A stretch of 55,106 bases of DNA from an uncultured Gemmatimonadaceae bacterium (GCA_963822945.1 CAWGJO010000043.1:1-55106), one strand, 5' to 3'; positions 37,811 through 55,106 are shown, numbered from the stretch's first letter. Translations and numbers: made by a program. Notes: generated by a model not told the origin, from the sequence alone.

Positions 37811-37823
37811 ACACGCTTCCTCG

Positions 37824-40080: not shown

Positions 40081-40139
40081 GGACGAGATGCTCAGACGCG
40101 ATTTCGTGAAGACTGCCACAGCGAGCGCCGTGCTGACGG

Positions 40140-40193
40140 AGCGAGCAGAGCCCTGCTGAACCCCACGCCGGCAGCAGCGGCGCCTCGTTAACT
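40140..40193 (-). repeat. Collapsed attC-family copy (R''/L'' arm intact, centre deleted)
   Basis: cccacgccggcagcagcggcgcctcgttaac; HigA stop codon lies in R''. Confidence 0.7.
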
Positions 40194-40493: not shown

Positions 40494-40700
40494 TCCTTCT
40501 CCTACTTGATAGTCGACGATCTCGACTTCGTACGCATTGCCCCCTTGCCGTCGGAAACAGATCCGCCATTGATCGTTGACACGGATACTGTGCTGGCCGG
40601 CTCGGTCCCCGTGCAGCTTCGCCAGGCGGTTTCCGGGCGGGACCCGCAAGTCGTCGAGCCGCTCTGCAGCGTCTACCGCAACGAACTGAGGCAGCGCGCT
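40494..40700 (-). pseudogene. higB: HigB/RelE toxin remnant (no N-terminus, stop lost)
   Basis: DLRVPPGNRL..L.GDRAGQHSIRVNDQWRICF..VEIVDY. Confidence 0.8.
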
Positions 40701-40766
40701 CTGCTGAGATCGTAGGGCGCATCGATATTCGCCGCCCCCTTGCCATGCCGGAACGCTTTGCGTTAG

Positions 40767-40790
40767 ATACTGAACCGTATGGTTCAGCAT
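40767..40790. promoter_or_regulatory. Putative ArsR operator palindrome
   Basis: CTGAACC-GTAT-GGTTCAG overlapping the ATG. Confidence 0.6.
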
Positions 40791-41144
40791 TTGACGACCC
40801 GACTTGATACCTCGTTCGCCGCGCTCTCGGACGCCACGCGGCGCGGCGTGCTGGAGCAGCTCGGACGAGCCGACGCTTCGATCACGGACCTGGCCGAGAC
40901 GTTCCACATGACGCTCACGGGCATGAAGAAGCACGTCGGCGTCCTGGAGCGGGCGGGGTTCGTCACCACGAGGAAGATCGGGCGCGTGCGGACGTGCCGA
41001 CTGGGCCCGCGCCAAGTGGAGGAGGAGACGGCGTGGCTCGAGCGGTACCGCCGGCGCTGGGACGAACGCTTCGACGAGTTGGACAAGGTGGTCAGGGAAC
41101 TGACACTCAAGGAGAAGAGCGATGAACGCAGGAAGCGAAGGTAA
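40779..41144 (+). CDS. ArsR family regulator
   Basis: FAALSDATRRGVL, KKHVGVLE. Confidence 0.85.
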   Translation: MVQHLTTRLDTSFAALSDATRRGVLEQLGRADASITDLAETFHMTLTGMKKHVGVLERAGFVTTRKIGRVRTCRLGPRQVEEETAWLERYRRRWDERFDELDKVVRELTLKEKSDERRKRR

Positions 41145-41637
41145 GCCCGGCCCCGCGAAGAACCGCACCACGGTGGAGCGGACGTCGGACCGCGAGGTGG
41201 TCGTCACGCGGACCATCAACGGCCCGGCGCGCATCGTGTTCGAGGCCTTTACCAAGGCCGACCTGTTCACACGTTGGTGGGTGCCCAAGTCGATTCCCAT
41301 GACCCTGCTGTCCTGCGAGATCGACGCGCGTGTCGGGGGCAAGTACCGCCTGGTATTCGACCACGACCCCGAGCCTGTTGCGTTCTTCGGCACGTACGTC
41401 GAGGTGCAGCCCTACTCGCGTCTCGCGTGGACCAATGAAGAAGGCGGCGAGGGCGTGCCGGTCACCACGGTGACGTTCGAGGAACAGGGCGGGAAGACGC
41501 TGGTGGTCCTGCGCGAGACCCATCCGTCAAAGGAATCCCTGGACGAGGCCGGCACGGGAGCGGCCGAGGCGATGATCGAGACCTTCGATCAGTTGGAAGA
41601 GCTGCTCGTGGCGCTGGGTGAGAGCTCGGGAGGGTAA
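41122..41637 (+). CDS. SRPBCC/AHSA1 domain protein
   Basis: TRTINGPARIVFEA, DARVGGKYR. Confidence 0.85.
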   Translation: MNAGSEGKPGPAKNRTTVERTSDREVVVTRTINGPARIVFEAFTKADLFTRWWVPKSIPMTLLSCEIDARVGGKYRLVFDHDPEPVAFFGTYVEVQPYSRLAWTNEEGGEGVPVTTVTFEEQGGKTLVVLRETHPSKESLDEAGTGAAEAMIETFDQLEELLVALGESSGG

Positions 41638-41681
41638 CCGCGAGATTGCAGGCGCCCGTCGCGCTTCCGCACCCGCACCCC

Positions 41682-42089
41682 TCACTTCTTCGCTGTCAGC
41701 CGTGCCTCGGGGACCGTCGGCTCGAACAACTCGATCGGGTTGCCCGACGGATCTTCGACGAGGATCTGCTTTCCGCCGACACCGGTCACGATTTCGTTGC
41801 GGAAGTGGGCGCCGGCCTTCCGCAACCGGTCGACGGTGGCGCCGAGATCCTCGACTTCAATGGCAAAGCGATTCCACCCTCCGGGCTCGGGCTTCCGGCC
41901 ATCCGGCATGGCCTGACCGCCCCCGCCCATCGGGTTGGGAGCACTGAGCACGAGTCGGAGGTCGCCCCGGGACAGCATGGCAAACGGGGGAGCCGGATGC
42001 ATGTCGAGCGTGAAGCCGAGCTGCTCCGTGTAGAATCCGATCGCTGCGTCCACGTCGTGGACGATGTAGCGGACCTGGACCGTGGTCAT
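41682..42089 (-). CDS. VOC family protein
   Basis: VRYIVHDV, GGWNRF, EDPSGNPIELF. Confidence 0.9.
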   Translation of the reverse strand: MTTVQVRYIVHDVDAAIGFYTEQLGFTLDMHPAPPFAMLSRGDLRLVLSAPNPMGGGGQAMPDGRKPEPGGWNRFAIEVEDLGATVDRLRKAGAHFRNEIVTGVGGKQILVEDPSGNPIELFEPTVPEARLTAKK

Positions 42090-42118
42090 GATGGTGTCCT
42101 CCCTTGGCTCTGTGGCAT

Positions 42119-42385
42119 TCACCGCCCGTGCTTCCTTGCTGCCCGCTGCCGCTCGCGTTGCTTGGCCAACGTCACCTTGAGATAGCGCCGATACCCATCG
42201 GGGCTCATCCAACCGCTCGGGCACTCGACCCGCGACAGCTCGCTCCCGCGGAGGCGGAGGAACTGGTGCGTCTTGCTCGTCCGGCGCTGGACCCGAACGC
42301 GGTACTGGCCCGTCTCCACGGCCCGGATGCGCCCAATGCGCCCGTCCGGCACCCGCACACAGTCTCCGACGGTGAAGCGATGCAT
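42119..42385 (-). CDS. Small basic hypothetical protein (KOW/SH3-like N-terminus)
   Basis: FTVGDCVRVPDGRIGRI. Confidence 0.55.
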   Translation of the reverse strand: MHRFTVGDCVRVPDGRIGRIRAVETGQYRVRVQRRTSKTHQFLRLRGSELSRVECPSGWMSPDGYRRYLKVTLAKQRERQRAARKHGR

Positions 42386-42459
42386 ATCGGTCCGATCTCG
42401 CGATGGAGGGGTGTCGTCACCCGGCGCCTCGTCAGGACGCCGGCTCACGGAAGCAGGCG

Positions 42460-43239
42460 CTAGGACCCGATACCGCGAGCGAGCGTCGCCAGGCGCAGAG
42501 TCCGCAACGGCGGTGCCCCGTCAGTTGGTGCTGCACCTCCGGGATCTGTTGCAGGAGGCGCGGTCAACGGTTCAGCCGATCGGTTGAGCGCCCCCTTCAT
42601 GTCCGGCTTGCGCTTGGCGAGCCATCCGATTGCCGCGCCGAGAATACCGGCTGTCAGAACCGCAAAGTGTGTGGGCCCGCCCTGCACCGACTGCAATCCG
42701 AAGACGAGGTGAATCAACAGCTCGGCGGCCTCGAATGCAGCGAAGCCCATGAGGCCGACTTCGGCGAGCCGAGCTTTGAGCCTGCGCGCGATGCCCACCC
42801 CCATGATGGAACCGACGAGAATCGCGGCCTCCATCGCTTGCCACCCAAAGTTCGTCGCGACCCTTGTGACCAGGAACGTGAAGACCCAGAAGAGCGTGAC
42901 CGCGACGGCGTTCGACACCACTGCGTCGCCAACGCCGGTTCTCCGCGTGTCAGCGCCACGTAGTCGGTGCCAGAACCGGCTGACGACATTGGAGGGCTTA
43001 TCCCTCGCTGAGTCGGCTTCGCCTGCGACCGGCGTACGCGCCAACGCACTGAGCTCGCGAAATGCCGCATCGAAGGCCTGTGCCGAAATGCCGGCCTCGC
43101 GCGCGATATCACGCAGTTCCGCGATCGTGGTCTCGGACCCGCGCGAGTCATCGAGCTCGATGGCCCGGGCAAGAAGCCGGTGGGCGGAGTCCTCCGACAG
43201 GCGCACGAGCTCGGCATCGGACAACGGTTCATGAGGCAT
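42460..43239 (-). CDS. Membrane protein (LRDIAREAGI N-terminal motif, ~4 TMs)
   Basis: RBS GGAGG; motif similar to the 12742-13420 gene. Confidence 0.65.
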   Translation of the reverse strand: MPHEPLSDAELVRLSEDSAHRLLARAIELDDSRGSETTIAELRDIAREAGISAQAFDAAFRELSALARTPVAGEADSARDKPSNVVSRFWHRLRGADTRRTGVGDAVVSNAVAVTLFWVFTFLVTRVATNFGWQAMEAAILVGSIMGVGIARRLKARLAEVGLMGFAAFEAAELLIHLVFGLQSVQGGPTHFAVLTAGILGAAIGWLAKRKPDMKGALNRSAEPLTAPPATDPGGAAPTDGAPPLRTLRLATLARGIGS

Positions 43240-43288
43240 CGTCTCACCCTCCGGCCATGGGGTTGTGATCCGGCCATTGCGTATGGCG

Positions 43289-43399
43289 TCCTGCGGCCGC
43301 GGCGCCCTGCTGCGGCGTTCTATAATAACTGCGGCCCGCGAGCGCAGCGTGCCGGCCGCTTCATCAGCCCACGCCGCCGGCAGCACGGCCTCGTTCGTC
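43289..43399 (-). repeat. attC, long family (R' degenerate)
   Basis: Family body conserved, GTT core lost. Confidence 0.8.
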
Positions 43400-43488
43400 A
43401 GCGGCAAGCCAACGGTCCAGCGCACCAGACGGACCCTGTGGCGGTCCAATCTGCAACGCCGTGGCTCTGAGAATGTCAATCCGACTCC

Positions 43489-43890
43489 CTATCCGGCTCC
43501 CATGACGTCCTGGAGCTTCGCCGTATCGACGTACTGCTGAAACCTGGTCACCTTGCCGTCTTTAACGTCCCAGACGTGGCAGACCTGCGCGTCCATGCCC
43601 TTCCCGGTCGCCTTGTACGTTCCGGTATAGCGGGCTTCGACGATGACGCTATCGCCGGCACTGTGAAACGACTTCGGATGGACGGAGAAGCCGTCCCACT
43701 CCGCCCCTAGTTTCACGAACAGATTGTTCAGCACGGCGTCCGGGCCTACCCAGGCCTCGCCGCTTGGCATGTAAGGGTTGCTCTCCGCCTCATGCCAGTT
43801 GATGGCCGGGCTCATCGCCCCGAGAACGGTCGGCATATCTCCGCGACCAAACGCATCGTAGAGATTCTTCAGCAGGTTTACGTTGTCCAT
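43489..43890 (-). CDS. SnoaL/NTF2-like cassette protein
   Basis: LYDAFGRGD, KDGKVTRFQQYVDT. Confidence 0.85.
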   Translation of the reverse strand: MDNVNLLKNLYDAFGRGDMPTVLGAMSPAINWHEAESNPYMPSGEAWVGPDAVLNNLFVKLGAEWDGFSVHPKSFHSAGDSVIVEARYTGTYKATGKGMDAQVCHVWDVKDGKVTRFQQYVDTAKLQDVMGAG

Positions 43891-43998
43891 GCTCCCTCCT
43901 CGGATGTGAATTGTTGCCCACCTGTCGACCGCCGATGCCATTCACACGCACCGCGGACTGCTCTCAGGCCGGCCCATAGGAGCGTAGTTCGATGGTCT

Positions 43999-44070
43999 GG
44001 CCAACGCCTGAGCTCAGCCGCCGGTAGCCCGCGTAGCAGGATGATGGTCGGCTGCAGCGATTTGTTGGGC
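43999..44070 (-). repeat. Canonical short attC (72 bp)
   Basis: GCCCAAC-AAATC-GCTGCAGC-CGAC...GCTGAGC-TCAGGC-GTTGGCC. Confidence 0.85.
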
Positions 44071-44598
44071 ACCACCGCCCACTTGCGCGAGAATGAATGC
44101 CACGCGCTCCTGAACCGAAACCTTGGGCAGGACACAAGCTTCATACCCTGATTGCAGATACGCTGCAATTGTTGGCCCATAGGATTTGGCTGCCCTGTCG
44201 AAGCTATGTGTGCGCTCGTGGTCGCACACATAAATATCGGGCCACGGTTCTGCCACGAATATCGTACTGGCATAACGGCACGATGCAGCCGTTTGGCAAT
44301 TCGGCTCGCCTGGATCCAGGAACCGTAGCCATTCGGGGATGCCGCGATCAAAGAACACAGGTGCCTGGAGAGATTTGGCCGCTGCATAGTCCTGGATGCT
44401 GCGAGCAAGAACGGCTTTCATGAACGCAATGCGATCCGTTGCAGGGAGGATTTTGCCGTTGCACTCCAACTGTTCTCGCATGACGGCTAGGGCTGCTTCT
44501 GGAATGGTGGAATATCCAAGATCGTCCAGCGCAGCTATGAGGGTTGATTTGCCAGCTCCAGACGCGCCGGTGATGACGTAAAAATGTTGGCTACTCAT
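44014..44598 (-). CDS. AAA_28-type ATPase cassette protein
   Basis: ITGASGAGKST, FFDRGIP. Confidence 0.8.
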   Translation of the reverse strand: MSSQHFYVITGASGAGKSTLIAALDDLGYSTIPEAALAVMREQLECNGKILPATDRIAFMKAVLARSIQDYAAAKSLQAPVFFDRGIPEWLRFLDPGEPNCQTAASCRYASTIFVAEPWPDIYVCDHERTHSFDRAAKSYGPTIAAYLQSGYEACVLPKVSVQERVAFILAQVGGGAQQIAAADHHPATRATGG

Positions 44599-44613
44599 GA
44601 TGCAGGTTCTGGC

Positions 44614-44724
44614 GCCCAACGCCGCGACGCGCTGCGGCGGCGCCCTATCATAATCACGGCCAGCGAGCGCAGCGAGTCGGCCGCTTCCAACGCCCGCACC
44701 GGCGGCAGCGGCGCCTCGCTAGGT
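44614..44724 (-). repeat. attC, long family
   Basis: + strand gcccaac...gctaggt. Confidence 0.85.
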
Positions 44725-44922
44725 TGGCCGCCCACCTGACCGACGTTCCCCATGCTTCCGCCAGTACGTGAGCCCAGCCAACCCGATACCCGCGCCAATC
44801 GCTCCCGGCCAGGAGATATGCGAGGACCAACCCAACTGCATGCTGATGGCTTCCAGCCCCACAAACACCAGAAAGGTGAATACGCCAGCACGGATGGCGT
44901 TCAAGCCATAGAGTGTCTGCAT
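44719..44922 (-). CDS. Small two-TM cassette protein
   Basis: RBS GAGGTG; stop in R''. Confidence 0.65.
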   Translation of the reverse strand: MQTLYGLNAIRAGVFTFLVFVGLEAISMQLGWSSHISWPGAIGAGIGLAGLTYWRKHGERRSGGRPT

Positions 44923-44950
44923 TCACACCTCGATGCGGAGATCGGTGCCA

Positions 44951-45062
44951 ACCTAACGCCGCGGCAGCTCTGCTGCGGCGTCCTATCATAATCGCGGCCC
45001 GCGAGCGAAGCGAGCCGACCGCTTCCCTACCCCACGCCGGCACCAGCAGCGCCTCGTTAGGG
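44951..45062 (-). repeat. attC, long family
   Basis: acctaac...gttaggg. Confidence 0.9.
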
Positions 45063-45078
45063 CGCCGGCCTGCGTGAC

Positions 45079-45351
45079 TCAGTTTGGGCGGCCCGGGCGA
45101 TTCCACAGCATGCCGCCCGCCGGAGCAGTCAGGTCAGCGATACCGCTATCGAGGACCACGTGCACCACGCGCCCGTTCACTGTGGCCGTGGGCCTCCTGC
45201 CCTCGATCGCCTTCGCCCGGAGAAAGATCACGCGCAACTCGGCGGGGCTCACCCAGCGTAGGTCCACCCCGTAGGCGCTGCCGGACCGCAGGGCTCCGTA
45301 GAGGGACACTACCGGCTGGCTACCGGGCGGGATCGCTCGGCCGGGGCGCAC
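45079..45351 (-). CDS. Hypothetical cassette ORF (possibly 5'-damaged)
   Basis: Only sense-strand ORF filling this cassette. Confidence 0.4.
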   Translation of the reverse strand: MRPGRAIPPGSQPVVSLYGALRSGSAYGVDLRWVSPAELRVIFLRAKAIEGRRPTATVNGRVVHVVLDSGIADLTAPAGGMLWNRPGRPN

Positions 45352-45402
45352 GAGGAAGAGCCCGAGCTGTCACCACCCTGTCCGTCCTCTATATGCGGTG
45401 CG

Positions 45403-45466
45403 CCCTGACCCGCCGGTTCAGCGGCGGCCCGCCCAACGCACCGTACGCCGCAACCGGTTGTGAGCC
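45403..45466 (-). repeat. Canonical-type short attC, degenerate cores
   Basis: GGCTCAC-AACCG-GTTGCGGC...GCTGAAC-CGGCGG-GTCAGGG. Confidence 0.7.
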
Positions 45467-46432
45467 TCAGCCTTCCCGACCATGGGCTTGCTGCTCGGCA
45501 CGGCGGTCCCGGTACCAGGAGATCGTGCGATCGATGGCGACCGGTATCGGCGTGGCAGACAGGCTGAACTGGCGCTCGAATCGCGACGAATCGACCACGA
45601 ACGGCGCGGTGAACTCGTACATCATCTCAACGCTGGCGCGCACGACGGGGATGAACAGCCCGACCACGCGCATCATGAGCGGTGACACCGTGCGTATCCC
45701 CGGTTCGACGCCAAGGACTCGACAAGCTTCCTCGACCATTTGGCCCTGCGTTCTGGCGGGGGCATGCGGTGGAATCCACACCTGACCGAGGGCCTCATCA
45801 TGCGTGCCCAAGGTGGCCGCCCCGAGGCCGACGTCCTCGATATACGCGAAGGAATGCGGCATCGTCGACGACCCACTCAGTTCCGCCTTCTTGCCGGCGA
45901 CCAGATTACCGAACACCCTGTCGCCCAGCGCCGACGCGGTCACACCAGGTCCGAAGTAGTCGCTCGAACGCAGGGCAGTCGCGCGGACGTCGCCGCGCGC
46001 GTGAGCCGCCATGACCTCCTCTGCCATCTTCTGGCGCAGCGCCCCCTTCCTTGACACCGGTGCTACTCGCGAAGCCTCGGTCATCGGTATCGTGGAGTCA
46101 TACATGTAGAGATTTTCAATCGACACGTACCTGGCGTTCGCGGTTTTTGCGGCGGAGAGCGCGGCGGTCTGCAGGGCAGGGAAGAACTCGTGCCAGCGGT
46201 GATACGGGGGATTGAGTGCTTGGTAGACAACAGTCGCTCCGGTGGCCGCCGCCACAGCCTGAGCAGGGTCTGCGACGTCGGCCTTGGTCACCTCGACATC
46301 GGTCGGCATCAGGTCTGGCCGAAGTCCGCTTCGATTCACGGCGCGCACGGCGCGCCCCTGGCCCCGCAATGCCCGCGCCGTCCAACACCCCACCGGGCCG
46401 GTTCCGAAGATCACGTGCAACTCGGCAGACAT
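45467..46432 (-). CDS. NAD-dependent epimerase/dehydratase family
   Basis: VIFGTGPVG, ENLYMY, HSFAYIED. Confidence 0.85.
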   Translation of the reverse strand: MSAELHVIFGTGPVGCWTARALRGQGRAVRAVNRSGLRPDLMPTDVEVTKADVADPAQAVAAATGATVVYQALNPPYHRWHEFFPALQTAALSAAKTANARYVSIENLYMYDSTIPMTEASRVAPVSRKGALRQKMAEEVMAAHARGDVRATALRSSDYFGPGVTASALGDRVFGNLVAGKKAELSGSSTMPHSFAYIEDVGLGAATLGTHDEALGQVWIPPHAPARTQGQMVEEACRVLGVEPGIRTVSPLMMRVVGLFIPVVRASVEMMYEFTAPFVVDSSRFERQFSLSATPIPVAIDRTISWYRDRRAEQQAHGREG

Positions 46433-46460
46433 GAGTCGTTCTTCTCCAATCCGGGTTCGA

Positions 46461-46570
46461 GGCTAACGCCACGGCGCTCTGCTGCGGCGTCCTATCATAA
46501 TTGCGACGCGCGAGCGTAGCGAGCCGGCCGCCCTCTCACCCCACCTGCCTGCAACAGCGCCTCGTTAGCG
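46461..46570 (-). repeat. attC, long family
   Basis: ggctaac...gttagcg. Confidence 0.9.
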
Positions 46571-46587
46571 AGCGGCCGCTCACCGTG

Positions 46588-46782
46588 TCAGCGCACCAGC
46601 CTCCACATCCAGACCAGGATGCCCATGATCGCGGCGATAAGAATCAACGTGAGGACGAGCTTGGCCAGGCCCTTGACGAGCTTCCACACACCGATGAGGA
46701 CAACCAGCGCTATAGCGGCGCCGACGGCCGTCGGCACGGGATGCGCCGCGAACTGCGATAGAAGCACCTGCACCGGTATCAC
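46588..46782 (-). CDS. Small two-TM cassette protein
   Basis: Hydrophobic 64-aa ORF. Confidence 0.6.
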   Translation of the reverse strand: MIPVQVLLSQFAAHPVPTAVGAAIALVVLIGVWKLVKGLAKLVLTLILIAAIMGILVWMWRLVR

Positions 46783-46836
46783 CTCGCTCGCTTACGGCAA
46801 CGGCACCGCACCGCCCATCGCCCAAAGCCGTCGCGT

Positions 46837-46947
46837 CGACAACGCCGCGGCACACCGCTGCGGCGTCGTATCATGATTGCTTCCGGCGAGCGCAGCGAGT
46901 CGGCCGCCTCCCCACCCCTCGCCGCCACCAGCCGCGCCTCGTTGGAT
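46837..46947 (-). repeat. attC, long family (diverged)
   Basis: cgacaac...gttggat. Confidence 0.8.
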
Positions 46948-47280
46948 CGCCGGCGCAAGGCACTTCAAGATGAAATCCATCCCAAACGCGTCATCCCCAT
47001 GCCCAAGGCCATCGCGATCAGTGCAACGAGCGCGATTCGAAACCACACGGCCCCCATGCGGCCCTTTCCCCTCCACCCGGGCCCGGTGCCGAAGAGAATG
47101 CCGAGGCCGACGCTGAGTCCGATTTCCTGCGCCGCGCGCCATGGTAAGACGTACGCATAGGCGAGGCGCCGGAGAACATCGTGTCATGCGAACCGCGCCG
47201 CTACGGCGGGAAAGACACCAGCGAGCTCACCCTCGTCCCACTCCGTGCCACTGGGCTCCTTCGGCTGAGTGAGCATCGGA

Positions 47281-47883
47281 TTACCCGCCCAGCGCATCCA
47301 TGTTGCCAAACGCGTACCCGCGGATGAGGACCCAGCCGACTTGGCCCTTTTCGTTTCGCACCCGGGCCCACCACGCCGTCACGGGTAGCTGGAGAAGCGC
47401 GAGGCCGCAGCTCCGAGCATCCTTGATGCACTCATCTGTGTAGAAGCTTGTGATGTCGACGTCGGTGTAGAGCTTTCCCTTGAACCAGATCTTCGAAAAG
47501 CCCTCCCCCTGATACGTCAGTAGGTACAGCGTATCCGACGGTGACCAAACCAACGTGGTGTCGTAGGCAACCTTGAATGGCCGTGTCGTGGCAACGTTCA
47601 CTTTCCCCGGTACGACGGTCCACACGGTTCCGGTGATGGCATCTACATGCTCTTTCGGCTCGATCAGGAACGCGACGGGGGTTGTGGAGTCCGGTTGGGT
47701 GTGTGCGGCAATCTCTCTCAGGGCCACCCAATTGCGGTACGAGCATCCCTCGAAGGGGCACGCCCCCGCATCCTTGTACGGAAGGGGCGGCCCCGGATCG
47801 ACCCCGGCCTGGGCGCACAGCCTTGGGGCGACGGACGCCACGGCGATCCATGAAAACAAGAGCGAGCGGATGAGACGCGTCAT
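47281..47883 (-). CDS. Secreted hypothetical protein (SH3-like C-terminus)
   Basis: RBS AGGAG, signal peptide, ACPFEGC, WWARVRNEKGQVGWV. Confidence 0.7.
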   Translation of the reverse strand: MTRLIRSLLFSWIAVASVAPRLCAQAGVDPGPPLPYKDAGACPFEGCSYRNWVALREIAAHTQPDSTTPVAFLIEPKEHVDAITGTVWTVVPGKVNVATTRPFKVAYDTTLVWSPSDTLYLLTYQGEGFSKIWFKGKLYTDVDITSFYTDECIKDARSCGLALLQLPVTAWWARVRNEKGQVGWVLIRGYAFGNMDALGG

Positions 47884-47939
47884 ATGGTGGCTCCTGCTAC
47901 TCGAAGAAGGCGCGACGCCGATACTACGTAAGGGCTGAC

Positions 47940-48050
47940 GCCCAACGCCGCCGCGCGCTGCTGCGGCGTCCCATAGTAATCGCGGCCCGCGATCGTCGCG
48001 CGCCGGCCGCCTCCGCTGACATCGTCGCCAGCAGCGCCGCCTCGTTAGAC
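47940..48050 (-). repeat. attC, long family (diverged)
   Basis: gcccaac...gttagac. Confidence 0.85.
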
Positions 48051-48233
48051 AGTGCGGGGCTCGAGCTCTTCCTTACCCACCCGCCGCTCGAGCTGCTCAA
48101 CCCGCCGCAGCAACTCCCGCTGCCGCCGGTAGACCCCGGGCGCCACAACGATCAGCCAGAGTAGCGTGCCGATCACGTAGGCGTAGAGCAGCACGACCAA
48201 GGCGGACGTTCCCCAGTGGAATATTGAAGCCAT
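48045..48233 (-). CDS. Small single-TM cassette protein
   Basis: RBS GAGGA; stop TAA in R''. Confidence 0.65.
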   Translation of the reverse strand: MASIFHWGTSALVVLLYAYVIGTLLWLIVVAPGVYRRQRELLRRVEQLERRVGKEELEPRTV

Positions 48234-48262
48234 GTCCGGTCCTCACCAAGTGCAGGGCATCC

Positions 48263-48373
48263 ACCGAACGCCGCGGCGCTCTGCTGCGGCGTTTCCTAAT
48301 AATGGCGGCAGCCACCCGCAGAGCGCCAGCCGCCACCCCAGCCTACGCCGACGGCAGTAGCGCCTCGTTAGGG
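48263..48373 (-). repeat. attC, long family
   Basis: accgaac...gttaggg. Confidence 0.85.
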
Positions 48374-48388
48374 CGCAGGCGCCCGAAT

Positions 48389-48751
48389 CTATCCACATGC
48401 ACGGCCCAAGTATCGGAAGCTCGCATCGAGTTCCGCCACACAATCGAATTCACGCGGCGATGGCATCCCCTGGGCCCCGGCCACGACGGCGTACCCACCA
48501 CCGCGGAGCGGCAGGACGACGACGGGCTCCGCATGTCCACCCGCGTCCACGGCGCCAATCGCCTCGGCCGCTCTCCGACAACTGCCCGGATCAGTCAAGA
48601 CATCGCCCCGTGCCCGATCGCCATACTTGGCGCGAAGAATCTGAGCGACAGGATTGGTGCTGGCTACACAGAGTGCCGGCTCCGGCTTGTGCACCGGTTG
48701 GCAGGCAGCAACCGCCATCACGACAATCACGACTCTCACCGAGGCAAGCAT
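48389..48751 (-). CDS. Putative lipoprotein
   Basis: Lipobox AVAAC. Confidence 0.6.
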   Translation of the reverse strand: MLASVRVVIVVMAVAACQPVHKPEPALCVASTNPVAQILRAKYGDRARGDVLTDPGSCRRAAEAIGAVDAGGHAEPVVVLPLRGGGYAVVAGAQGMPSPREFDCVAELDASFRYLGRACG

Positions 48752-48768
48752 GCCGTGCTCACGCTCGC

Positions 48769-49566
48769 CTAGCTCGCGAGGTCGTAGAGCAGTCTGTAGA
48801 AGGTCATACGCTCAACGTCCATGGGCACCCCGTACTCAGCCAGGAACAGGTCCTCGAAACCGGGACCCAAGTTCCACGTTAGGCTCCACGTTGCGACGGC
48901 GAGGTCCCACCATCGGTCTGCAACGCCCAACTCTCCAAGGTCGACGTATCCCGTCGCTCGCTCATCCTCGATGAGGATGTTCGGTAGGCAGTAATCGCCA
49001 TGGCAGACCACCAGGTCTTCAAAGCCGGGACAGGCTGATTCCAGGAGCTGGACGGCCTCAACCGGCGTCAGATGGGAGAACTCGACATGGAAGTCGCGTT
49101 GCTGGTCGATCAGCCCTGCCTCGAGCCGCTTGCGAACATGTCTAAGGGCCGCCCCTAGGCGGAAATCAAATGGGCAAGTCGCCACCGGAGCCATCTCGTG
49201 GAAGGCACGGAGGCCCCGAGCGAGGATCCGGGCAAGCGCCGCTGGCTCCTCCGTCAGCTTCGGATCCGTGGCGTCTCGGCCGGGCAGCGCGGTCGTCATC
49301 AGCCAGTCGATGGACGCCTCCGTTCCTTGGCGAACGACGCCGGGCACGGGCAGGTGGGGGTGCGCCCACCGCATGCGGTCCGCTTCACCCGCGAGAGCCG
49401 GGTAATGGCCGGCTTCGGCCAGCTTCACGAAGAACTCCGGGCCACCGCTGCGCACCAGGCGGTAGGTAACGGAATGCTGGGCGTACTGATGGGTGAGGAC
49501 CCAGTCGAAATCCGAGTAGCTTGCCTTCAGCTGCGGCGGTGGCTGCAGCCAACCCTTCTCGTCCAT
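48769..49566 (-). CDS. Aminoglycoside 3'-phosphotransferase family protein
   Basis: FFVK, E..RM.W, VVCHGDYCLPNILI, YVDLGELGVADRWWDLA, FYRLL. Confidence 0.85.
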   Translation of the reverse strand: MDEKGWLQPPPQLKASYSDFDWVLTHQYAQHSVTYRLVRSGGPEFFVKLAEAGHYPALAGEADRMRWAHPHLPVPGVVRQGTEASIDWLMTTALPGRDATDPKLTEEPAALARILARGLRAFHEMAPVATCPFDFRLGAALRHVRKRLEAGLIDQQRDFHVEFSHLTPVEAVQLLESACPGFEDLVVCHGDYCLPNILIEDERATGYVDLGELGVADRWWDLAVATWSLTWNLGPGFEDLFLAEYGVPMDVERMTFYRLLYDLAS

Positions 49567-49610
49567 ATCGCTCCCGCCACCCCCGTGCCAGATCCGTCCA
49601 TCGGACGGCA

Positions 49611-49722
49611 CTCTAACGCCGCGGCGCTCTGCTGCGGCGTTCCCTAATAGAATGCGGCAGGCGCCCGCAGGGCGCCAGCCGCCTCCCTACCTCACGCCGC
49701 CAGCAGCAGCGCCTCGTTAGGC
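49611..49722 (-). repeat. attC, long family
   Basis: ctctaac...gttaggc. Confidence 0.9.
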
Positions 49723-49950
49723 GGTCCCCGCCTTCGAAGGCCGCCAGGTGAGCGCTAGTTTTCGCCCCGATGCCGCACAGTCGCGCAGGTAGAGGTTGAT
49801 CAACGTCTGATACGGCAGCTCCGTTTCGTCGGCCAGCCCTTTGAAATACTCGACGGTCGACTGATCTAACCGGATCGTGACCGACCGCTTGAGCCGCTTC
49901 GCATAGGGATTCTTGACCGCCTTCGAGAAATCATAGTGCTTGCGCATCAT
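49717..49950 (-). CDS. brnA: BrnA family antitoxin
   Basis: YDFSKAVKNPY, VTIRLD..VEYFK, YQTLINLYLR. Confidence 0.85.
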   Translation of the reverse strand: MMRKHYDFSKAVKNPYAKRLKRSVTIRLDQSTVEYFKGLADETELPYQTLINLYLRDCAASGRKLALTWRPSKAGTA

Positions 49951-50240
49951 CGCCTCCGATCAGCATAGAGCTCCCGTTCGCTTCGGTCTGCCTTGCGCGC
50001 CGAGATGATCCGAATCACAGCGCCGTCCCGCGTTTCGCAGTGGACGACGACGAGCACCCGGAGCCCCGAACTCACGCCGAGCAAGATGAACCGTTCCTGC
50101 CCAACCGAGTGATCGGGATCGGCCACCAAGAGGGCCTCGTCGTCCTCGAACACGGTCATCGCTTCTGTGAACGACACGTGATGCTTGCGGGCGTTCTCGG
50201 CGGCTTTGACCGGATCCCAGTCGAAACGCGGCTGACTCAT
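49947..50240 (-). CDS. brnT: BrnT family toxin
   Basis: FDWDPVKA..N.RKH.VSF.EA, RIISARKA. Confidence 0.9.
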   Translation of the reverse strand: MSQPRFDWDPVKAAENARKHHVSFTEAMTVFEDDEALLVADPDHSVGQERFILLGVSSGLRVLVVVHCETRDGAVIRIISARKADRSERELYADRRR

Positions 50241-50245
50241 GCTCA

Positions 50246-50273
50246 AATGTACGTATGTTGTACGTACAGTCAA
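50246..50273 (-). promoter_or_regulatory. brnTA promoter with overlapping palindromic operator
   Basis: TTGACT-N16-TACATT 5 nt before the ATG; TGTACGTA..TACGTACA inverted repeat. Confidence 0.65.
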
Positions 50274-50292
50274 GTCTTGAGGCCCGTGGCCC

Positions 50293-50403
50293 GCCTAACG
50301 CCGCGGCGCTCTGCTGCGGCGTTCTATCATAATTGCGGCCAGCGAGCGCAGCGAGCCGGCCGCTTCCCTAGCCCACGCCGGCAGCAGCAGCGCCTCGTTA
50401 AGT
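50293..50403 (-). repeat. attC, long family
   Basis: gcctaac...gttaagt. Confidence 0.92.
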
Positions 50404-50595
50404 GCCGCGGACACCGGTTCCATCCCTGATCCCGCCCGCCCGGAGCCGCCCGAGTTCGTCGGCGATGCGCTCGTGGGCGGCTACGCCTCGCTCCATCGCG
50501 TGCAGAAAGCGCAGCACAAAGTAGATGACGAGCGCGATGTAGACGAGGGGGAAGAACAGCACCCACAGACCACCACCATTCACGTGGAAATTCAT
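50398..50595 (-). CDS. Small single-TM cassette protein
   Basis: RBS AGGAG; stop in R''. Confidence 0.7.
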   Translation of the reverse strand: MNFHVNGGGLWVLFFPLVYIALVIYFVLRFLHAMERGVAAHERIADELGRLRAGGIRDGTGVRGT

Positions 50596-50624
50596 AGCGG
50601 CTCCTAGGTAAGCGGCGGTCGTGC

Positions 50625-50735
50625 ACCTAACGCCGCGGCGCTCTGCTGCGGCGTCCTATCATAGTTGCGGCCGGCGAGCGTAGCGAGTCGGCCGCTTCCA
50701 AAGCCCACGCCGACGGCAGCAGCGCCTCGTTGGTA
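50625..50735 (-). repeat. attC, long family
   Basis: acctaac...gttggta. Confidence 0.9.
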
Positions 50736-50761
50736 GGTTGCCCGGTCCCTCGACACGGAGT

Positions 50762-51244
50762 TCAACATCTCGTCTCGCCGCGCGACGGTCGCCGAGGTCG
50801 GCAGATGTGTGTACTCCTTCCTCGGCGAGTGGGCTGTGGACCCGACGGCTTCGCATTCCTCGCACCGTGGAGCAGTCTCGCGACCTCGCGCCGCTCTCCC
50901 GCACTTAGCTCGTGGAGCAACACGCGAATGTTCCTTTCGTACAGCCGCCGCGCAAGGAGCGGCGCCTGACGCAGGAAGCTGGGGCCGGCGGCATCGAAGA
51001 GCGCGAAATGGTCGAAGGTAACGAGGGGCCCACGGCCGCCTAAGGTCGGGATCCTATGCGCCCCGATACCGATCCACGTGATGCGTCCGTCGATGCCGTG
51101 CGACGCAGGCTCGGCACCAAACCCGCCGACACCGATGACCGCCTCGAAATCCCAAGACCGGACGCGACCCATACAGTCATGGATGCCGACCAGCCATTCG
51201 TCCGGATCACCCGTATGTGTCCGCTTATAAATGAGCGTTCGCAT
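50762..51244 (-). CDS. Hypothetical cassette protein (YKRTH.GDPD N-terminus)
   Basis: RBS AGGAG, fills the cassette. Confidence 0.65.
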   Translation of the reverse strand: MRTLIYKRTHTGDPDEWLVGIHDCMGRVRSWDFEAVIGVGGFGAEPASHGIDGRITWIGIGAHRIPTLGGRGPLVTFDHFALFDAAGPSFLRQAPLLARRLYERNIRVLLHELSAGERREVARLLHGARNAKPSGPQPTRRGRSTHICRPRRPSRGETRC

Positions 51245-51275
51245 ACTCTCCTGGAATCGCGATCCTGAGCAACTG

Positions 51276-51386
51276 GCCTAACGCCGCGGCGCTCTGCTGC
51301 GGCGTCCTATCATAATTGCGGCCCGCGAGCGCAGCGAGCCGGCCGCCTCCCAAGCCCACGCCGCCGGCAGCAGCGCCTCGTTAGAC
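51276..51386 (-). repeat. attC, long family
   Basis: gcctaac...gttagac. Confidence 0.92.
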
Positions 51387-51418
51387 GGACGCGCCAAGAC
51401 TCGCACAACTGCCGCATG

Positions 51419-51972
51419 TCAAATCATTTCCCCGAGCCAAGGGAAACACAGAACGCAAATCCAGAAGAACAACAACCAGTGGATGGCCAAACTGGCTTTC
51501 CATTTCTCAGTCTTGCGAAAGTGCAGCCACGAGAGGGCAAGCGCACCGAGTACCAGGCCATTCACGGAGATGTACTTAAGGAGCAGATCCAAGCCCTGGT
51601 ACTGCATTCCATAATGCCACCCGCGTGCAAAGTACACGATACTTGCCGCCGTGACTCCGCGCAGCCAGAACTACCGTCTTCCGTGGATATAGGTTCTCGG
51701 CCCTCGCTATTGGCCTGCACCATACCCAGAACACCCCGGCAACCAACGTCGGATAGATGAGTGTGCCAATAGTCGTCCCAATATCGTACAAAGCGGTCGT
51801 CCGCTGAGCTTCACGGCAGCGTATAGCACCACCGTTCGAATGGCGCCACCGTCGCTAAGCCGATGATCCAACCGGGGACCGGCATCGGCGGCAAGAACGG
51901 GCTTACCGCCGCGAACCCCCAAAGGGTCAGGGAGGCGACGCCAACTGCGAGATGTCGTTTCTTCCCCGTCAT
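51419..51972 (-). pseudogene. Membrane protein cassette gene broken into several frames
   Basis: Hydrophobic ORF pieces 51419-51637 and 51576-51791, plus an upstream ATG at 51972. Confidence 0.45.
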
Positions 51973-51990
51973 CGGAACACCGTTGGTGCC

Positions 51991-52101
51991 GTCTAACGCC
52001 GCGGCGCTCTGCTGCGGCGTTCCATAATAATTGCGGCCAGCGAGCGCAGCGAGCCGGCCGCTTCCCTAGCCCCCGCCGGCGGCAGCAGCGCCTCGTTAGG
52101 C
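51991..52101 (-). repeat. attC, long family
   Basis: gtctaac...gttaggc. Confidence 0.92.
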
Positions 52102-52357
52102 AGCGGCCGCGCATCGCTTCACGGAACGCGCGCCGCAGTCACTACCAGGAACAGATCGCAATGACCACTCACGACTGACTAGGCCACGCCCGGATGACGT
52201 CGCCACGACGGCAGCGGCCACACGGCAATCGTCGACCGACCACGATGCCCGCTGCGGCAGAATGCAGAACGATCTCGCGGTCGGGTCTAGGAGGGCTCGA
52301 CGAACCGATCGAAGCGGCCGACTCGCGAAAGAGTGTGGACACCGCGGACGATTCAAC

Positions 52358-52468
52358 AGCCAACGCACCGCGCGCGCTCTGCGCGATGCTATGCATGACT
52401 GCGGCCAGCGAGCGGAGCAAGGCGGCCACCACACTCGACGAGGTGTCCGCAGCAACGCCTCGTTATGG
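52358..52468 (-). repeat. attC, long family (strongly degenerate)
   Basis: agccaac..gcgctctgc..gcggccagcgagcg..cgcctcgttat. Confidence 0.7.
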
Positions 52469-52735
52469 ACGATGTGACCCGCCGAAATGCCTGCGCGCGA
52501 TCGCTGCCGGCCGTGTACACAGGATCCGCGCACCTGTGGCACCCCAACGAACGCTTCCATCGCGACGATGGCCGCACGGAGCCTCGGCAGACCGGAAACA
52601 CTCGCCATCGAGCGAATGGGCGCGCCATCGCAAGAACGCGCCCGCAGCGCGAGTCTCGCAACCAGCGCAGCGATCGCGTAGCGAGGTCTGGCGCCCCGGA
52701 TGCTTCCCTATTCGACCGTCTGGACACTCGTGCCT

Positions 52736-52846
52736 GCCTAACGCCGCGGCGCTCTGTTGCGGCGTCCTATCATAATCGCGGCCCGCGAGCGCAGCGAGCC
52801 GGCCGCTTCCAAAGCCCACGCCGACGGCAGCAGCGCCTCGTTAGGT
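52736..52846 (-). repeat. attC, long family
   Basis: gcctaac...gttaggt. Confidence 0.92.
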
Positions 52847-52902
52847 GGCCGGAGCGCCGACTGGCTCCCTCACCCAACTGGTTACCCCATCGGATTGCTC
52901 AG

Positions 52903-53466
52903 TCACTTGGGCCACGCGTATCCAATTCCAGCTCGGCTGCCGGTGAGGAATGGTTCGCGGTCAACGGGTTGTGTGAACTCGCTCTCGACGACTCCGATTC
53001 GCTCATTGAGCATGCCAAGATTGTAACTGGAACGAATTCGCTGGATCAGCGACGACTGAGCCCGGCGAATACGTACTCGCCCCATTGTTCTCCCGACTAT
53101 CGACCGCGACAAGGATATACAGGTACACGCGGTGAAAGCCCAACTCGGCGAGGCGGTTCGCCGACCAATGCCCTCTTGAAGGTTCGCCAAGCCGTTGGGC
53201 TCTCCAGTCCGAAACGCCGACGCTCCAACCTTAATTCTCTTGACTTCGACAGCGATCGCCTTCTCTGGTGCGTCGGGCGGGACGATCAGCATATCAACGT
53301 CACCCGATGGACGCCCCCGTGTACCGTGCGGCAGGGAGCGCCGCGGCAAGATTGTCGAGTCGTGCGGGGTGTCCGGCGGCAGGCCAATGAGTTGGCGCCA
53401 ACGCGGGTCTGCCACGATTCGGTCAACGAACTGGGCTTCGGTGATATTGGCGATTGACGGTTCCAT
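52903..53466 (-). CDS. Hypothetical protein with PD-(D/E)XK-like motif (possibly frameshifted)
   Basis: GDVDMLIV...AIAVEVKR. Confidence 0.5.
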   Translation of the reverse strand: MEPSIANITEAQFVDRIVADPRWRQLIGLPPDTPHDSTILPRRSLPHGTRGRPSGDVDMLIVPPDAPEKAIAVEVKRIKVGASAFRTGEPNGLANLQEGIGRRTASPSWAFTACTCISLSRSIVGRTMGRVRIRRAQSSLIQRIRSSYNLGMLNERIGVVESEFTQPVDREPFLTGSRAGIGYAWPK

Positions 53467-53473
53467 GTGGTCC

Positions 53474-53583
53474 ACCTAACGCCGCGGCGCTCTGCTGCGG
53501 CGTTCACAATTATGGCGGCAGGCGGCAACCGGCGACCAGCCGCTTCCCTAACCCACGCCGCTGGCAGCAGCGCCTCGTTAGGC
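53474..53583 (-). repeat. attC, long family
   Basis: acctaac...gttaggc. Confidence 0.9.
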
Positions 53584-53879
53584 GGCTGGTGGGCAGGATT
53601 GGCCCGCGTCCAAGGAGCGCCTTCGCAGTAACGACCGGGCCGCGCACCGTGATCCGGAACCTCACGAATTGGGGACGCCAGTGAGACTTGGCTTGTTCCA
53701 GATGAGCATCTTCTTTGGGTACGCCACACAGTCCGTCAAGACAGATACGCCGAACCGCACCTTCCATCACCGTCCTCACAAAGACTCGGCATCGTTGAGG
53801 TCACCGCCTAGTTGGACCTGCAACTGAGACTGACCATCGATAACCGTGTCGATAGTGGCAGGTTAGTCTGGCGAGTTCC

Positions 53880-54167
53880 TCACGGATAGAGGTGTATTTT
53901 CGCTTCTGCCAAGTTCCGTGCCGGCAGCAAGCCGATGAGGTCGATGGCCCCAGTCCTCGAATGTGCTTCGCGACCGTTACGAACGTGTTTCATCGCCTCT
54001 TGCTGCCACGCGCACCTCGGCACCCTCCATGCCCAGATCATGGAGGGTCTTAATGCGAGGAAGAGCGCCCCTACAAAATCCAGAGGTCGCGGAGGCGCTT
54101 TCCCCGGAGTGTAGAACCAAACCAGGAACGCGACCACGAAGACGATGGCGACAACCAGAATCCTCAC
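53880..54167 (-). CDS. Membrane protein fragment in cassette
   Basis: Two hydrophobic segments; does not fill the cassette. Confidence 0.4.
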   Translation of the reverse strand: MRILVVAIVFVVAFLVWFYTPGKAPPRPLDFVGALFLALRPSMIWAWRVPRCAWQQEAMKHVRNGREAHSRTGAIDLIGLLPARNLAEAKIHLYP

Positions 54168-54240
54168 TGTCTCTTCCCAGTTCTAATGGTGCGCGGAATC
54201 ACCCGCCTAGTGACTCAACGGTCCGACACGCTGGCAGCAC

Positions 54241-54351
54241 GCCTAACGCCGCGGCGCTCTGCTGCGGCGTTCTATCATAATTGCGGCCAGCGAGCGCAGC
54301 GAGCCGGCCGCTTCCCTAGCCCACGCCGTCGGCAGCAGCGCCTCGTTAGGT
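54241..54351 (-). repeat. attC, long family
   Basis: gcctaac...gttaggt. Confidence 0.92.
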
Positions 54352-54570
54352 TGACGCATCGCGAGCCCTGGTCGCCGCCTTCTCGCCACGCGCGATACGA
54401 ACGATCTGGGTGCCATTCACCATAGCGGCCAGCCCGATGACCACGCCGGCAATGCGGCCCCCGGGCGATCGTAGGCCGAAGACGCCAAGCGCGCCAGCAA
54501 CCACTGCGGTAGCCCCTAGCAGGCTCAACACCACTCGGCCCATCCGATCTCTACGCCGCGAAGTAGTCAC
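54346..54570 (-). CDS. Small two-TM cassette protein
   Basis: Stop TAA in R''. Confidence 0.65.
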   Translation of the reverse strand: MTTSRRRDRMGRVVLSLLGATAVVAGALGVFGLRSPGGRIAGVVIGLAAMVNGTQIVRIARGEKAATRARDAST

Positions 54571-54589
54571 GTCGGGATCTCCGGGTTCA

Positions 54590-54700
54590 ACCTAACGCCG
54601 CGGCGCTCTGCTGCGGCGGTTCATAATAGTTGCGGCCAGCGAGCGCAGCGAGCCGGCCGCTTCCATACCCCACGCCGCCAGCAGCAGCGCCTCGTTAGGC
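54590..54700 (-). repeat. attC, long family
   Basis: acctaac...gttaggc. Confidence 0.92.
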
Positions 54701-55087
54701 AGCCGAGGCACTCCACTTGACGGCATAGTCCTCGGCGAAGGCACCGGCCTGTTCGGCACCAGCAAAAGACCTATCGACCACCTTCCTCCAAGGACCTGGA
54801 CTGGTCAGCGGCTCAGTCGGCGCCGTGCTCACAGAGAGGATCCTTTCCTTGCCATCCCAATCGAATCGCATGACTTCTGGGCCGCTTGCGTTGTAGTCGC
54901 GCCGAAGCAAGGCTGCGGCGTACGCGTCCGCAGCAGGCCCTCGCTGAACCTCGAGAGTCCACGAACCAAAACTCCTCCAGTCGCAGTGAAGCACGGATAC
55001 GACCACGTCCCTGTCGGCGAGTCGCTTGGCGAGCCCGCAAAGGTAGTCAATGAATCCGACGAGCAATACGATGAGTCGAGGTGTCAA
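54695..55087 (-). CDS. Hypothetical cassette protein (start uncertain)
   Basis: Stop TAA within GCCTAAC R''. Confidence 0.6.
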   Translation of the reverse strand: MTPRLIVLLVGFIDYLCGLAKRLADRDVVVSVLHCDWRSFGSWTLEVQRGPAADAYAAALLRRDYNASGPEVMRFDWDGKERILSVSTAPTEPLTSPGPWRKVVDRSFAGAEQAGAFAEDYAVKWSASAA

Positions 55088-55106
55088 AGGCGACGACCAA
55101 TTGCTG

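Follow-up and report, generated by a model that had tools for sequence, protein, structure and literature searches.

Distal part of a probable sedentary chromosomal integron in a Gemmatimonadaceae genus with two integrase lineages at one locus

The window analysed here, 55,106 nucleotides from an uncultured Gemmatimonadaceae bacterium, is an entire contig (C43) of a 3.97-Mb assembly (G000), and its right-hand part carries an array of ~110-bp repeats. As the window is the whole contig, the array runs past the contig end. A genome-wide search with a profile built from 7 copies returned 22 matches, 19 of them on the window contig and all on the same strand; contig C34 holds two solo copies and C37 one. 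Seventeen of the 19 lie within 43,290–54,700, with partial copies at 36.1 and 40.1 kb. Mean column identity across the 17 copies is 83%, and the 16 that could be anchored measure 110–112 bp. The host belongs to the Gemmatimonadota and is high-GC and non-proteobacterial. The original prediction, made from the DNA alone, had described this repeat array as the lineage-specific attC family of a sedentary locus in a high-GC host outside the proteobacteria, and in each of these respects it was upheld.

The 17 co-oriented repeats are confirmed as attC sites, all on the minus strand. The most proximal of the contig lies at 54,590–54,700. It is followed inwards by 54,241–54,351, where the bottom-strand hairpin is clearest (R and L boxes with the spacer between them, a pair of unpaired bases and an extended terminal structure), 53,474–53,583, with a variant terminal structure, 52,736–52,846, the degenerate 52,358–52,468 (score 58.7), 51,991–52,101, and 51,276–51,386, which at lowest energy adopts a different, non-recombinogenic fold. 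Further sites occupy 50,625–50,735, 50,293–50,403, 49,611–49,722 (variant terminal structure), 48,263–48,373, 47,940–48,050, 46,837–46,947 (partly decayed), 46,461–46,570, 44,951–45,062 and 44,614–44,724 (altered R'' triplet). In the array's last site, 43,290–43,400, the crossover triplet is missing from the R' box, and the site is probably dead. This copy and the degenerate one at 52,358 do not fold above shuffles (z +0.22 and +0.74, respectively).

The family shows every expected attC element: the boxes R''/L''/L'/R', a central spacer that stays unpaired, further unpaired bases within the R''–L'' arm and a variable terminal structure, with 91.7% of cells paired in the bottom-strand hairpin. 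The usual unpaired attC bases are G and T, and changing G to C costs 2.7-fold in the assay of PMC2727003; by contrast, the first unpaired base in this family is C in 85 of 90 sites, the second varies, and 6 bp separate them. Covariation among the window copies was not better than in shuffles (63/500). The window repeat had no Rfam match at the gathering score, and no exact match to the attC was present in the viral contigs searched.

Traces of cassette recombination are visible at the cassette ends. The 4 bases past the triplet pair perfectly with the start of their own cassette in 6 of 15 window cassettes, compared with 0 of 15 in place, and own-start pairing over positions 4–8 gave a permutation p of 0.001. 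When congeners were included, the cassette end paired with its own start in 67 of 87 cases and with the neighbour in 11 of 87. Such pairing would be expected if each cassette had been taken up as a circle cut at G|TT. Decay of attC sites along the array forms a clear gradient in congener G009 (rho −0.61) and a weak one in the window (−0.43, p = 0.07); it is absent in G006.

The longest ORF is co-oriented with the array, on the minus strand, in 14 of the 16 inter-repeat units. The predicted layout, usually one minus-strand ORF per unit, holds for orientation and needs correcting for number: no fewer than four units contain a pair of genes, and two short ones have no convincing gene. Stop codons, said to lie often in the repeat box, were found in R'' for 6 of 15 cassette-terminal ORFs, which were picked by hand. 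From the contig end inwards, the minus-strand cassettes begin with an ORF at 54,695–55,106 that has its stop in R'' and may run off the contig end, and continue with ORFs of 74 aa (54,346–54,570; a G001 cassette gives an 81% DNA match), 95 aa (53,880–54,167) and up to 190 aa (52,903–53,475), two to three small ORFs (51,419–51,972) and one ORF of 160 aa (50,762–51,244), all of them without a family. Next come a 65-aa ORF (50,398–50,595), to which a G006 cassette is 98.5% identical, and a BrnT/BrnA toxin–antitoxin cassette with its own promoter-like site (49,717–50,273), of which G006 has two copies, 99.3–99.6% identical. A gene for an APH(3')-family aminoglycoside phosphotransferase (48,769–49,566; NF033068, 222 bits, cut-off 205) shares its unit with a 120-aa ORF without a family (48,389–48,751).

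In the distal half of the array, ORFs of 62 aa (48,045–48,233) and 64 aa (46,588–46,782) also occur in the sister genome G012, and ORFs of 200 aa (47,281–47,883) and 67 aa (44,719–44,922) have no family. Two units carry two genes each, one encoding an NAD-dependent epimerase-family protein and a 90-aa product (45,079–46,432; 96% identical in G012, at another position), the other an AAA_28 ATPase and a SnoaL-like protein (43,489–44,619). Matching cassettes of the window and G006 are 98.5–99.6% identical, compared with only 92.3% for gyrB, and cassette order differs between the window genome and G012, which together indicate recent traffic. PADLOC models matched none of 14 ORFs from the window and 4 of 91 cassette ORFs from congeners, so few that this library makes no case for a defence island.

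Beyond the last attC, a distal tail of small accessory genes (29,883–43,289) encodes a glyoxalase, SRPBCC/ArsR pairs, HigBA, RibD_C, DUF1801 and a beta-lactamase-like protein. The tail is common to G009, G012 and G006 at 85–98%, and congeners carry its genes past the end of their own arrays, with the order shuffled. A half attC on the minus strand at 40,129–40,196, consisting of the R''–L'' arm only and sharing bases with a higA-type gene's stop codon, is the remnant of an old cassette. The tail probably includes cassettes that have lost their former attC.

Thirteen of the 16 congeners carry the attC family, as do 1 of 8 other genera and 0 of 16 genomes of other families, and it is 111 bp long in 91 of 109 sites. 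Outside the genus, 12 of 147 genomes gave 1–3 mostly weak matches, scoring being limited to 5 candidates in each genome. IntI is present in 87 of 151 Gemmatimonadaceae genomes. In open-licence text, supplements aside, we found no account of this attC family and no integron survey of the Gemmatimonadota; supplementary tables may list these genomes.

Among the 16 congeners, nine encode an IntI above the TIGR02249 cut-off (10 genes). In alignment against XerD, these proteins contain the integron-specific insertion, and their catalytic motif is intact. The gene order is fdh–fdhD–fhs–intI–attI–array on a single strand, with up to 44–49 sites. Nine of the 10 intI genes have the array downstream of them on their own strand, the contig of the tenth stopping 129 bp past the match, and fhs is the immediate upstream neighbour in 9 of the 10 cases. 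In 8 of 9 loci, attI is placed by 7 bp that match the R'' of the first cassette. The integrase gene is co-directional with the cassettes in all nine congener loci with an array and in all six clear arrays of other genera, and by analogy with the congeners the window integron would have the same co-directional ('inverted integrase') layout. Two congeners depart from this picture: G007 has an unrelated gene after fhs and no repeat, and G010 has only 5 sites beside intI and some 20 decayed ones at other places, in both orientations.

The congener integrases fall into two clades, A and B, which are 49–54% identical to each other, 77–86% within A and 71–91% within B. A single IntI clade for the genus is rejected (AU p = 3e-7). 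Five genomes carry A and four carry B at the same locus, and grouping of the B carriers as a host clade is rejected with fhs (p = 1e-75), fdh (p = 2e-33) and gyrB (p = 0.004, from the gene alone, the 5-kb gyrB region having been dropped for misaligned flanks). The A/B distribution on the fhs tree amounts to 3 changes. Judged from these trees, A and B do not follow the host tree, with at least three changes between them.

The two platforms differ over a limited stretch. The intI leader is common to A and B up to the ATG; between G006 and G009, identity is 93–98% and drops to 59–66% at the start of intI. A and B platforms carry different attI sites, and B comprises two subtypes, 71% identical, with their own attI in each. 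B integrases carry a conserved ~30-aa C-terminal tail, for which only 3 homologues were found, all of integrase length, and no Atlas match at ≥0.9. A TTGC-17-CA.A.T pattern, identified by pattern match only, lies at −92/−93 in 5 of 5 type A and 0 of 4 type B platforms. By contrast with the integrases, the attC sites hardly separate: identity is 87.0% for A–A, 83.8% for B–B and 85.4% for A–B, and no position differs at p < 0.01, a comparison resting mostly on G006 (28 sites) and G009 (37 sites). None of 19 loci from the closest relatives of A and B in other genera lies at fhs, which gives no indication that the allele pair is older than the genus. Scanning metagenomes for the intI leader motif gave 3 matches, which we regard as chance since none has intI, fhs or attC.

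These comparisons suggest that A and B are long-lived, interchangeable integrase–Pc–attI alleles, swapped between species and both working on one attC family, a proposal that we consider evenly balanced. The swap boundaries that go with it, one at the start codon and the other at the attI crossover, have the same even standing. A competing view is that the integron is correctly identified and that the A/B pattern, instead of repeated swapping, reflects one old acquisition combined with chimeric or mis-binned contigs, or two platforms at nearby loci, only one of which shows in each assembly. As every genome is a metagenome assembly, any single one could contain a chimeric fhs–intI junction; G005 has two A-type genes, one of them on a contig beginning 108 bp before the ATG, and frameshifts in the fhs of G006 and G001 are a sign of read errors. 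The fhs, fdh and gyrB trees also disagree among themselves, but such disagreement is itself expected under recombination. Artefact or duplication would further have to account for three different A/B sister pairs on three markers, for the division of B into subtypes with separate attI sites, and for the single IntI above the cut-off in the near-complete G010 (4 contigs, 99%). We regard this view as unlikely.

In the window's own genome, the integrase itself is missing from the assembly. Searches with TIGR02249, PF00589 and an IntI alignment found no IntI in this 88%-complete assembly, where XerD is the sole full-length tyrosine recombinase; the only other match, a weak recombinase-like ORF on C6, has no repeat nearby. 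Contig C5 breaks off inside the fdh operon at its end, and neither an intact fdhD nor fhs was found in the assembly. The sister G012 (gyrB 97.6%) shows the same break, and five further IntI-less congeners end their contigs at the same place. Because the conserved flank stops at a contig edge exactly where congeners carry intI and attI, these two elements and the newest cassettes most likely lie in the gap between C5 and C43. The original prediction had put intI and attI beyond the right edge; the congeners bear out that position, and for this genome it is reached by analogy. Of the two-part refuting condition attached to that prediction, dispersed REP/MITE-like copies and a genome lacking IntI, the second half formally applies to this assembly. 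Among public sequencing runs the best share of words was 0.16 and none of those listed holds RNA, so these runs inform neither habitat nor expression; no public contig over the window's right end was linked to a platform. The co-directional intI and the presence of two integrase lineages at the locus go beyond what had been predicted.

Alternatively, the lineage of G000 and G012 may have lost intI, perhaps together with fdhD and fhs, leaving a true CALIN whose cassettes are frozen or moved only by homologous recombination. Both assemblies lack intI, fhs and an intact fdhD, and several window attC sites are decayed, as such a loss would predict. Against it, the flank breaks inside genes at a contig end in both genomes, the array starts at a contig end, five other congeners stop at the same place, and the near-identical cassettes shared with another species, together with the changed order relative to G012, point to recent traffic. 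We consider this loss improbable. That the repeats are REP- or MITE-like palindromes inserted near gene ends and merely resembling attC is highly improbable: the solo copies on C34 and C37, and in G010 the copies that are scattered in both orientations and partly truncated, would suit such elements, but in the window genome 19 of 22 copies share one contig and one orientation, the scattered G010 copies mostly come after accessory-type ORFs of their own orientation, and neither own-start complementarity nor arrays starting right behind intI–attI, as in 9 loci, are features of such elements.

We are confident that the window is the distal part of the genus's sedentary chromosomal integron, most likely with a co-directional layout and with intI and attI in the C5–C43 gap; across the genus, the platform is exchanged between A and B. 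On known integron biochemistry, IntI would recombine the folded attC bottom strand with attI; since it acts between these two sites, new cassettes would enter beside intI, and older ones would shift outward and decay. Type A platforms would express cassettes from the candidate promoter 92–93 bp before the crossover, and cassettes would move from one species of the genus to another. Everything between the start codon of intI and the crossover point of attI exists as two unrelated alleles, A and B, which have changed places repeatedly; homologous recombination between the fhs/leader side and the attC/cassette side is the likeliest route, and the attC family has remained unchanged.

The Vibrio VCR arrays and the Xanthomonas arrays at the ilvD locus (PMC8618304, PMC5371416 and bioRxiv 2025.06.18.660453) resemble the window in their long homogeneous attC sites and tens of small, co-oriented, mostly uncharacterised cassettes. 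They also share with the present genus the toxin–antitoxin cassettes, a fixed locus behind a housekeeping gene and secondary attC clusters elsewhere. The genus differs in its own 111-bp attC family, where C is the first unpaired base and the second varies, in the co-directional integrase and in the Gemmatimonadota host. As in the congeners, intI of the Treponema denticola type is transcribed toward attI, in the cassette direction (PMC3607928 and PMC4889954); that system is described as one acquisition with vertical descent, whereas the present locus alternates between two integrase lineages. An in-place replacement of intI, read as recombination at the locus, is reported in Xanthomonas arboricola, where the adjacent housekeeping gene is 97.1% and intI 68.2% identical (bioRxiv 10.1101/2025.06.18.660453). 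That swap is presented there as a rare exception to vertical descent, whereas in the present genus both alleles are common, with at least three changes and a separate attI for each, and the attC sites of the two types have been set side by side directly. The window contig alone would earn the CALIN label of Cury et al. 2016 (PMC4889954); unlike a CALIN, its lack of intI coincides with an assembly gap where congeners carry the gene.

Taken alone, the array is a system of an ordinary kind from a phylum that has been little studied, and the natural experiment in its relatives matters more. Proposed reasons for homogeneous attC sites are the resident integrase as cassette maker (Cury 2016, PMC4889954) and integrase–attC co-evolution that refuses foreign sites (Debatisse 2025, PMC12614218). 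Two ~50%-identical integrases with one attC family at one locus make such co-evolution testable. If the allele reading is true, attC homogeneity would be set by the host lineage or a shared cassette pool, not by one integrase's co-evolution or cassette-making, and the Gemmatimonadaceae would be among the most integron-rich families known. The survey suggests a large cassette reservoir in this widespread soil and sediment family, and the window carries its APH(3')-family gene in cassette form.

Two minor observations concern the array as DNA. The A/T-rich attC loop has a −10-like hexamer with no −35 partner, and a promoter scan returned 2 promoter-like sites against 2.3 expected, none inside an attC; a promoter role for attC is not supported. 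The attC bottom strand lies on the template of the leading strand in 25 of 30 SCIs (PMC5371416); here, genome skew is weak and the origin was not located, and the cassette strand is G-rich in the window genome and four congeners.

Running a profile built from seven repeat copies over the G000 genome (3.97 Mb, 88% complete, 68% G+C; the window is all of its contig C43) yielded 22 matches, of which 17 form the array between 43,290 and 54,700, the copy number originally noted. Mean column identity among these 17 is 83%, and site length is 111 bp in 91 of 109 anchored sites from the window and its congeners. The repeats flank minus-strand ORFs as noted, the longest ORF being co-oriented in 14 of 16 units, while stop codons, described as often lying in the RYYYAAC box, fall in the R'' box in 6 of 15 hand-picked terminal ORFs. 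Cassette DNA has 62.5% G+C, compared with 67.9% in the window's first 30 kb. Decay is evident in two array sites, 43,290 and 52,358, and weak attC-like remnants in the array's orientation occur far to its left, at 23866-23977 and 36083-36163.

The reading of the ~110-bp palindrome as attC was upheld by the fold of the bottom strand, here the plus strand, and by complementarity of cassette ends to their own starts. In IntI recombination as described in the cited papers, a cassette enters in circular form, opened at G|TT, so its end is expected to be complementary to its own start. This, the strongest test of attC identity, is independent of the fold. Perfect pairing over four bases was found for 6 of 15 window cassettes with their own start versus 0 of 15 for the site in place (positions 4-8, permutation p=0.001, 15 window cassettes); with congeners added, the counts were 67/87 and 11/87. 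The bottom strand of site 54,241 folds with its R box paired and the spacer open; next comes an L stem, which has two unpaired bases spaced by 6 bp on the R''-L'' arm, and then a terminal structure of some length. Fold z-scores ranged from -1.2 to -5.4 for five intact bottom strands, one of which favours an alternative fold. This structure is 91.7% paired across 16 copies, among which covariation showed no excess over shuffles; 90 gap-free sites contain 6-14 compensatory changes at each of three pairs. C occupies the first unpaired position in 85 of these 90, and any base the second, whose neighbours are 96-100% paired. By contrast, passages of PMC2727003 describe attC unpaired bases as usually G and T, with a 2.7-fold cost for a G-to-C change in a V. 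cholerae site. The attC loop (for example, 54271-54283) is A/T-rich and unpaired within an otherwise G+C-rich site, and attC families of other Gemmatimonadota genera have similar loops.

A scattered REP/MITE-like palindrome, dispersed in both orientations in a genome without IntI, would match the G000 assembly in its lack of IntI, but not in dispersal: 19 of the 22 copies, two of them partial (36.1 and 40.1 kb), lie on one contig and one strand, leaving two on contig C34 and one on C37. The most complete congener, G010, has five sites at intI and ~20 decayed copies that are spread over several regions in either orientation, as such a palindrome might be; these copies, however, lie mostly behind accessory-type ORFs. 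We consider this explanation highly improbable compared with an attC array. Secondary attC clusters are noted for about half of Xanthomonas genomes in part of bioRxiv 2025.06.18.660453. In congener G016, attC sites and genes are mirrored in an inverted duplication (L191:6586-10240), perhaps an assembly fold-back.

The proposed non-proteobacterial, high-GC host was confirmed: in a species-level genome collection, an exact 28-base pattern matched 43 stretches from 8 assemblies, all titled Gemmatimonadaceae or Gemmatimonadota. The repeat is present in 13 of 16 congeners and, weakly, in one of eight other genera, and is absent from all 16 genomes drawn from other families; when the sample outside the genus was enlarged to 147 genomes, 12 had one to three mostly weak matches. 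Other genera possess distinct attC families, and the family described here is genus-specific. IntI exceeded the cut-off in 87 of 151 Gemmatimonadaceae genomes (including two unpublished, G022 and G065). Complete integrons, a stricter measure, are given for 20% of Gamma- and 10% of Betaproteobacteria in a review (PMC8618304), where Gemmatimonadota are already among the phyla listed with integrons. The integron of this window is of a kind already known.

The original prediction also placed intI and attI beyond the right edge. No IntI was found in the 88% complete G000 assembly, whose full tyrosine recombinase is XerD, and it is the congeners that locate the expected position. Nine of 16 congeners have IntI over the TIGR02249 cut-off (10 genes); nine genes are followed by a same-strand array (the largest reach 44 and 49 sites if weak remnants are counted), and nine are preceded by fhs, with fdh and fdhD further upstream. 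A 7-bp stretch shared with the first cassette placed attI in 8 of 9 congener cases. Contig C5 of G000 matches the congener fdh flank at 78-88% and stops inside the fdh operon, ~5 kb short of the intI position; fdhD and fhs were not found in the assembly. Contigs end at the same place in six of seven IntI-less congeners; in the seventh, G007, fhs is followed by another gene and the repeat is absent. To the left of its array, the window has a tail that matches DNA on the distal side of the G009, G012 and G006 arrays. We infer that intI and attI of G000 sit in the gap after C5, which no read set among public runs bridges. The window system is most likely a sedentary, inverted-layout integron. A co-directional intI layout, as in the genus, is described for Treponema in parts of PMC3607928 and PMC4889954. 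Of 19 loci examined in other genera, six have clear arrays, and all six show it. In family member G157, three attC-like sites lie downstream of intI on the opposite strand (L177). Contig C6 of G000 carries a divergent tyrosine-recombinase-like ORF at ~58000-59400 (PF00589 below cut-off, no attC nearby).

Congener integrases fall into clades A (G003, G004, G005 twice, G006, G011) and B (G001, G009, G010, G016), which are 49-54% identical and each nearer to integrases of other genera; a single IntI clade for the genus was rejected (AU p=3e-7). A hairpin-forming leader is common to both up to the ATG, beyond which divergence is immediate. G006 and G009 are 93-98% identical across fdhD-fhs, and their identity drops to 59-66% within intI. 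The attI regions also differ, with a promoter-like pattern match at -92/-93 in 5/5 type A loci. B carriers as a host clade were rejected on gyrB (p=0.004), fdh (p=2e-33) and fhs (three changes). These comparisons point to an integrase-attI module that is interchangeable among relatives. In both types, a conserved inverted repeat in the leader ends ~9 bases before the start codon (L032-L042) and could be an operator, an fhs terminator or a translational control element. At its C terminus, type B IntI (L039:1267-2457, L033:1474-2601) has a tail of ~30 aa after a Gly/Ala/Pro linker, in which changes fall mostly at third positions; this tail is under protein-level constraint and occurs in the nearest other-genus relative too. 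The attC loop resembles type A attI over 12 bases.

Both types share one attC family. In data from nine genomes, all metagenome assemblies and two dominating the comparison, attC identity was 87.0% (A-A), 83.8% (B-B) and 85.4% (A-B), no position differed between types at p<0.01, and nearest-neighbour sites were of the same type in 16.8 of 79 cases versus 15.8 expected. In B arrays, the family sites of first-position cassettes reach 91-96% of consensus, and some cassettes are common to A and B arrays at 97.5-98.9%. In-place intI replacement in Xanthomonas arboricola, outlined in bioRxiv 2025.06.18.660453, is a precedent for such a swap. The repeated exchange and the direct comparison of attC sites are relevant to the idea, put forward in PMC12614218, that co-evolution accounts for homogeneous attC sites.

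G006, with a gyrB identity of 92.3%, has counterparts of two window cassettes at 98.5% and 99.3-99.6%. Three units are shared with the sister genome G012 (89-96%) in a different order, and a gene at 42,119, without attC in the window, lies by an attC there. The further a site lies from intI, the lower its quality in G009 (rho -0.61) and, weakly, in the window (rho -0.43, p=0.07); the G006 array showed no such fall. Family matches in the window cargo comprise BrnT/BrnA, an epimerase-family gene, AAA_28, SnoaL and one gene of the APH(3') family, which scores above the NF033068 cut-off and has at most 43% identity to plasmid-borne relatives. Most ORFs lack a family assignment (Pfam match in 18 of 115 congener ORFs). 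At 40188-40760, HigB-like and HigA-like sequences share one open frame; the HigB-like toxin part lacks start and stop, and a half attC ends the pair, which is a decayed toxin-antitoxin cassette. The distal tail holds a beta-lactamase-family gene (PF00144, 34457-36061), and the stretch containing it matches G009 at 93-94%; since this exceeds their gyrB identity (90%), it suggests recent exchange of tail DNA. Congener cassettes at L050:14503-15189, L050:11709-12437 and L047:4766-5494 match defence models (NucC-like, PD-Lambda-3/HEPN-like and PD-T7-4), and barstar-like cassettes are duplicated in G009.
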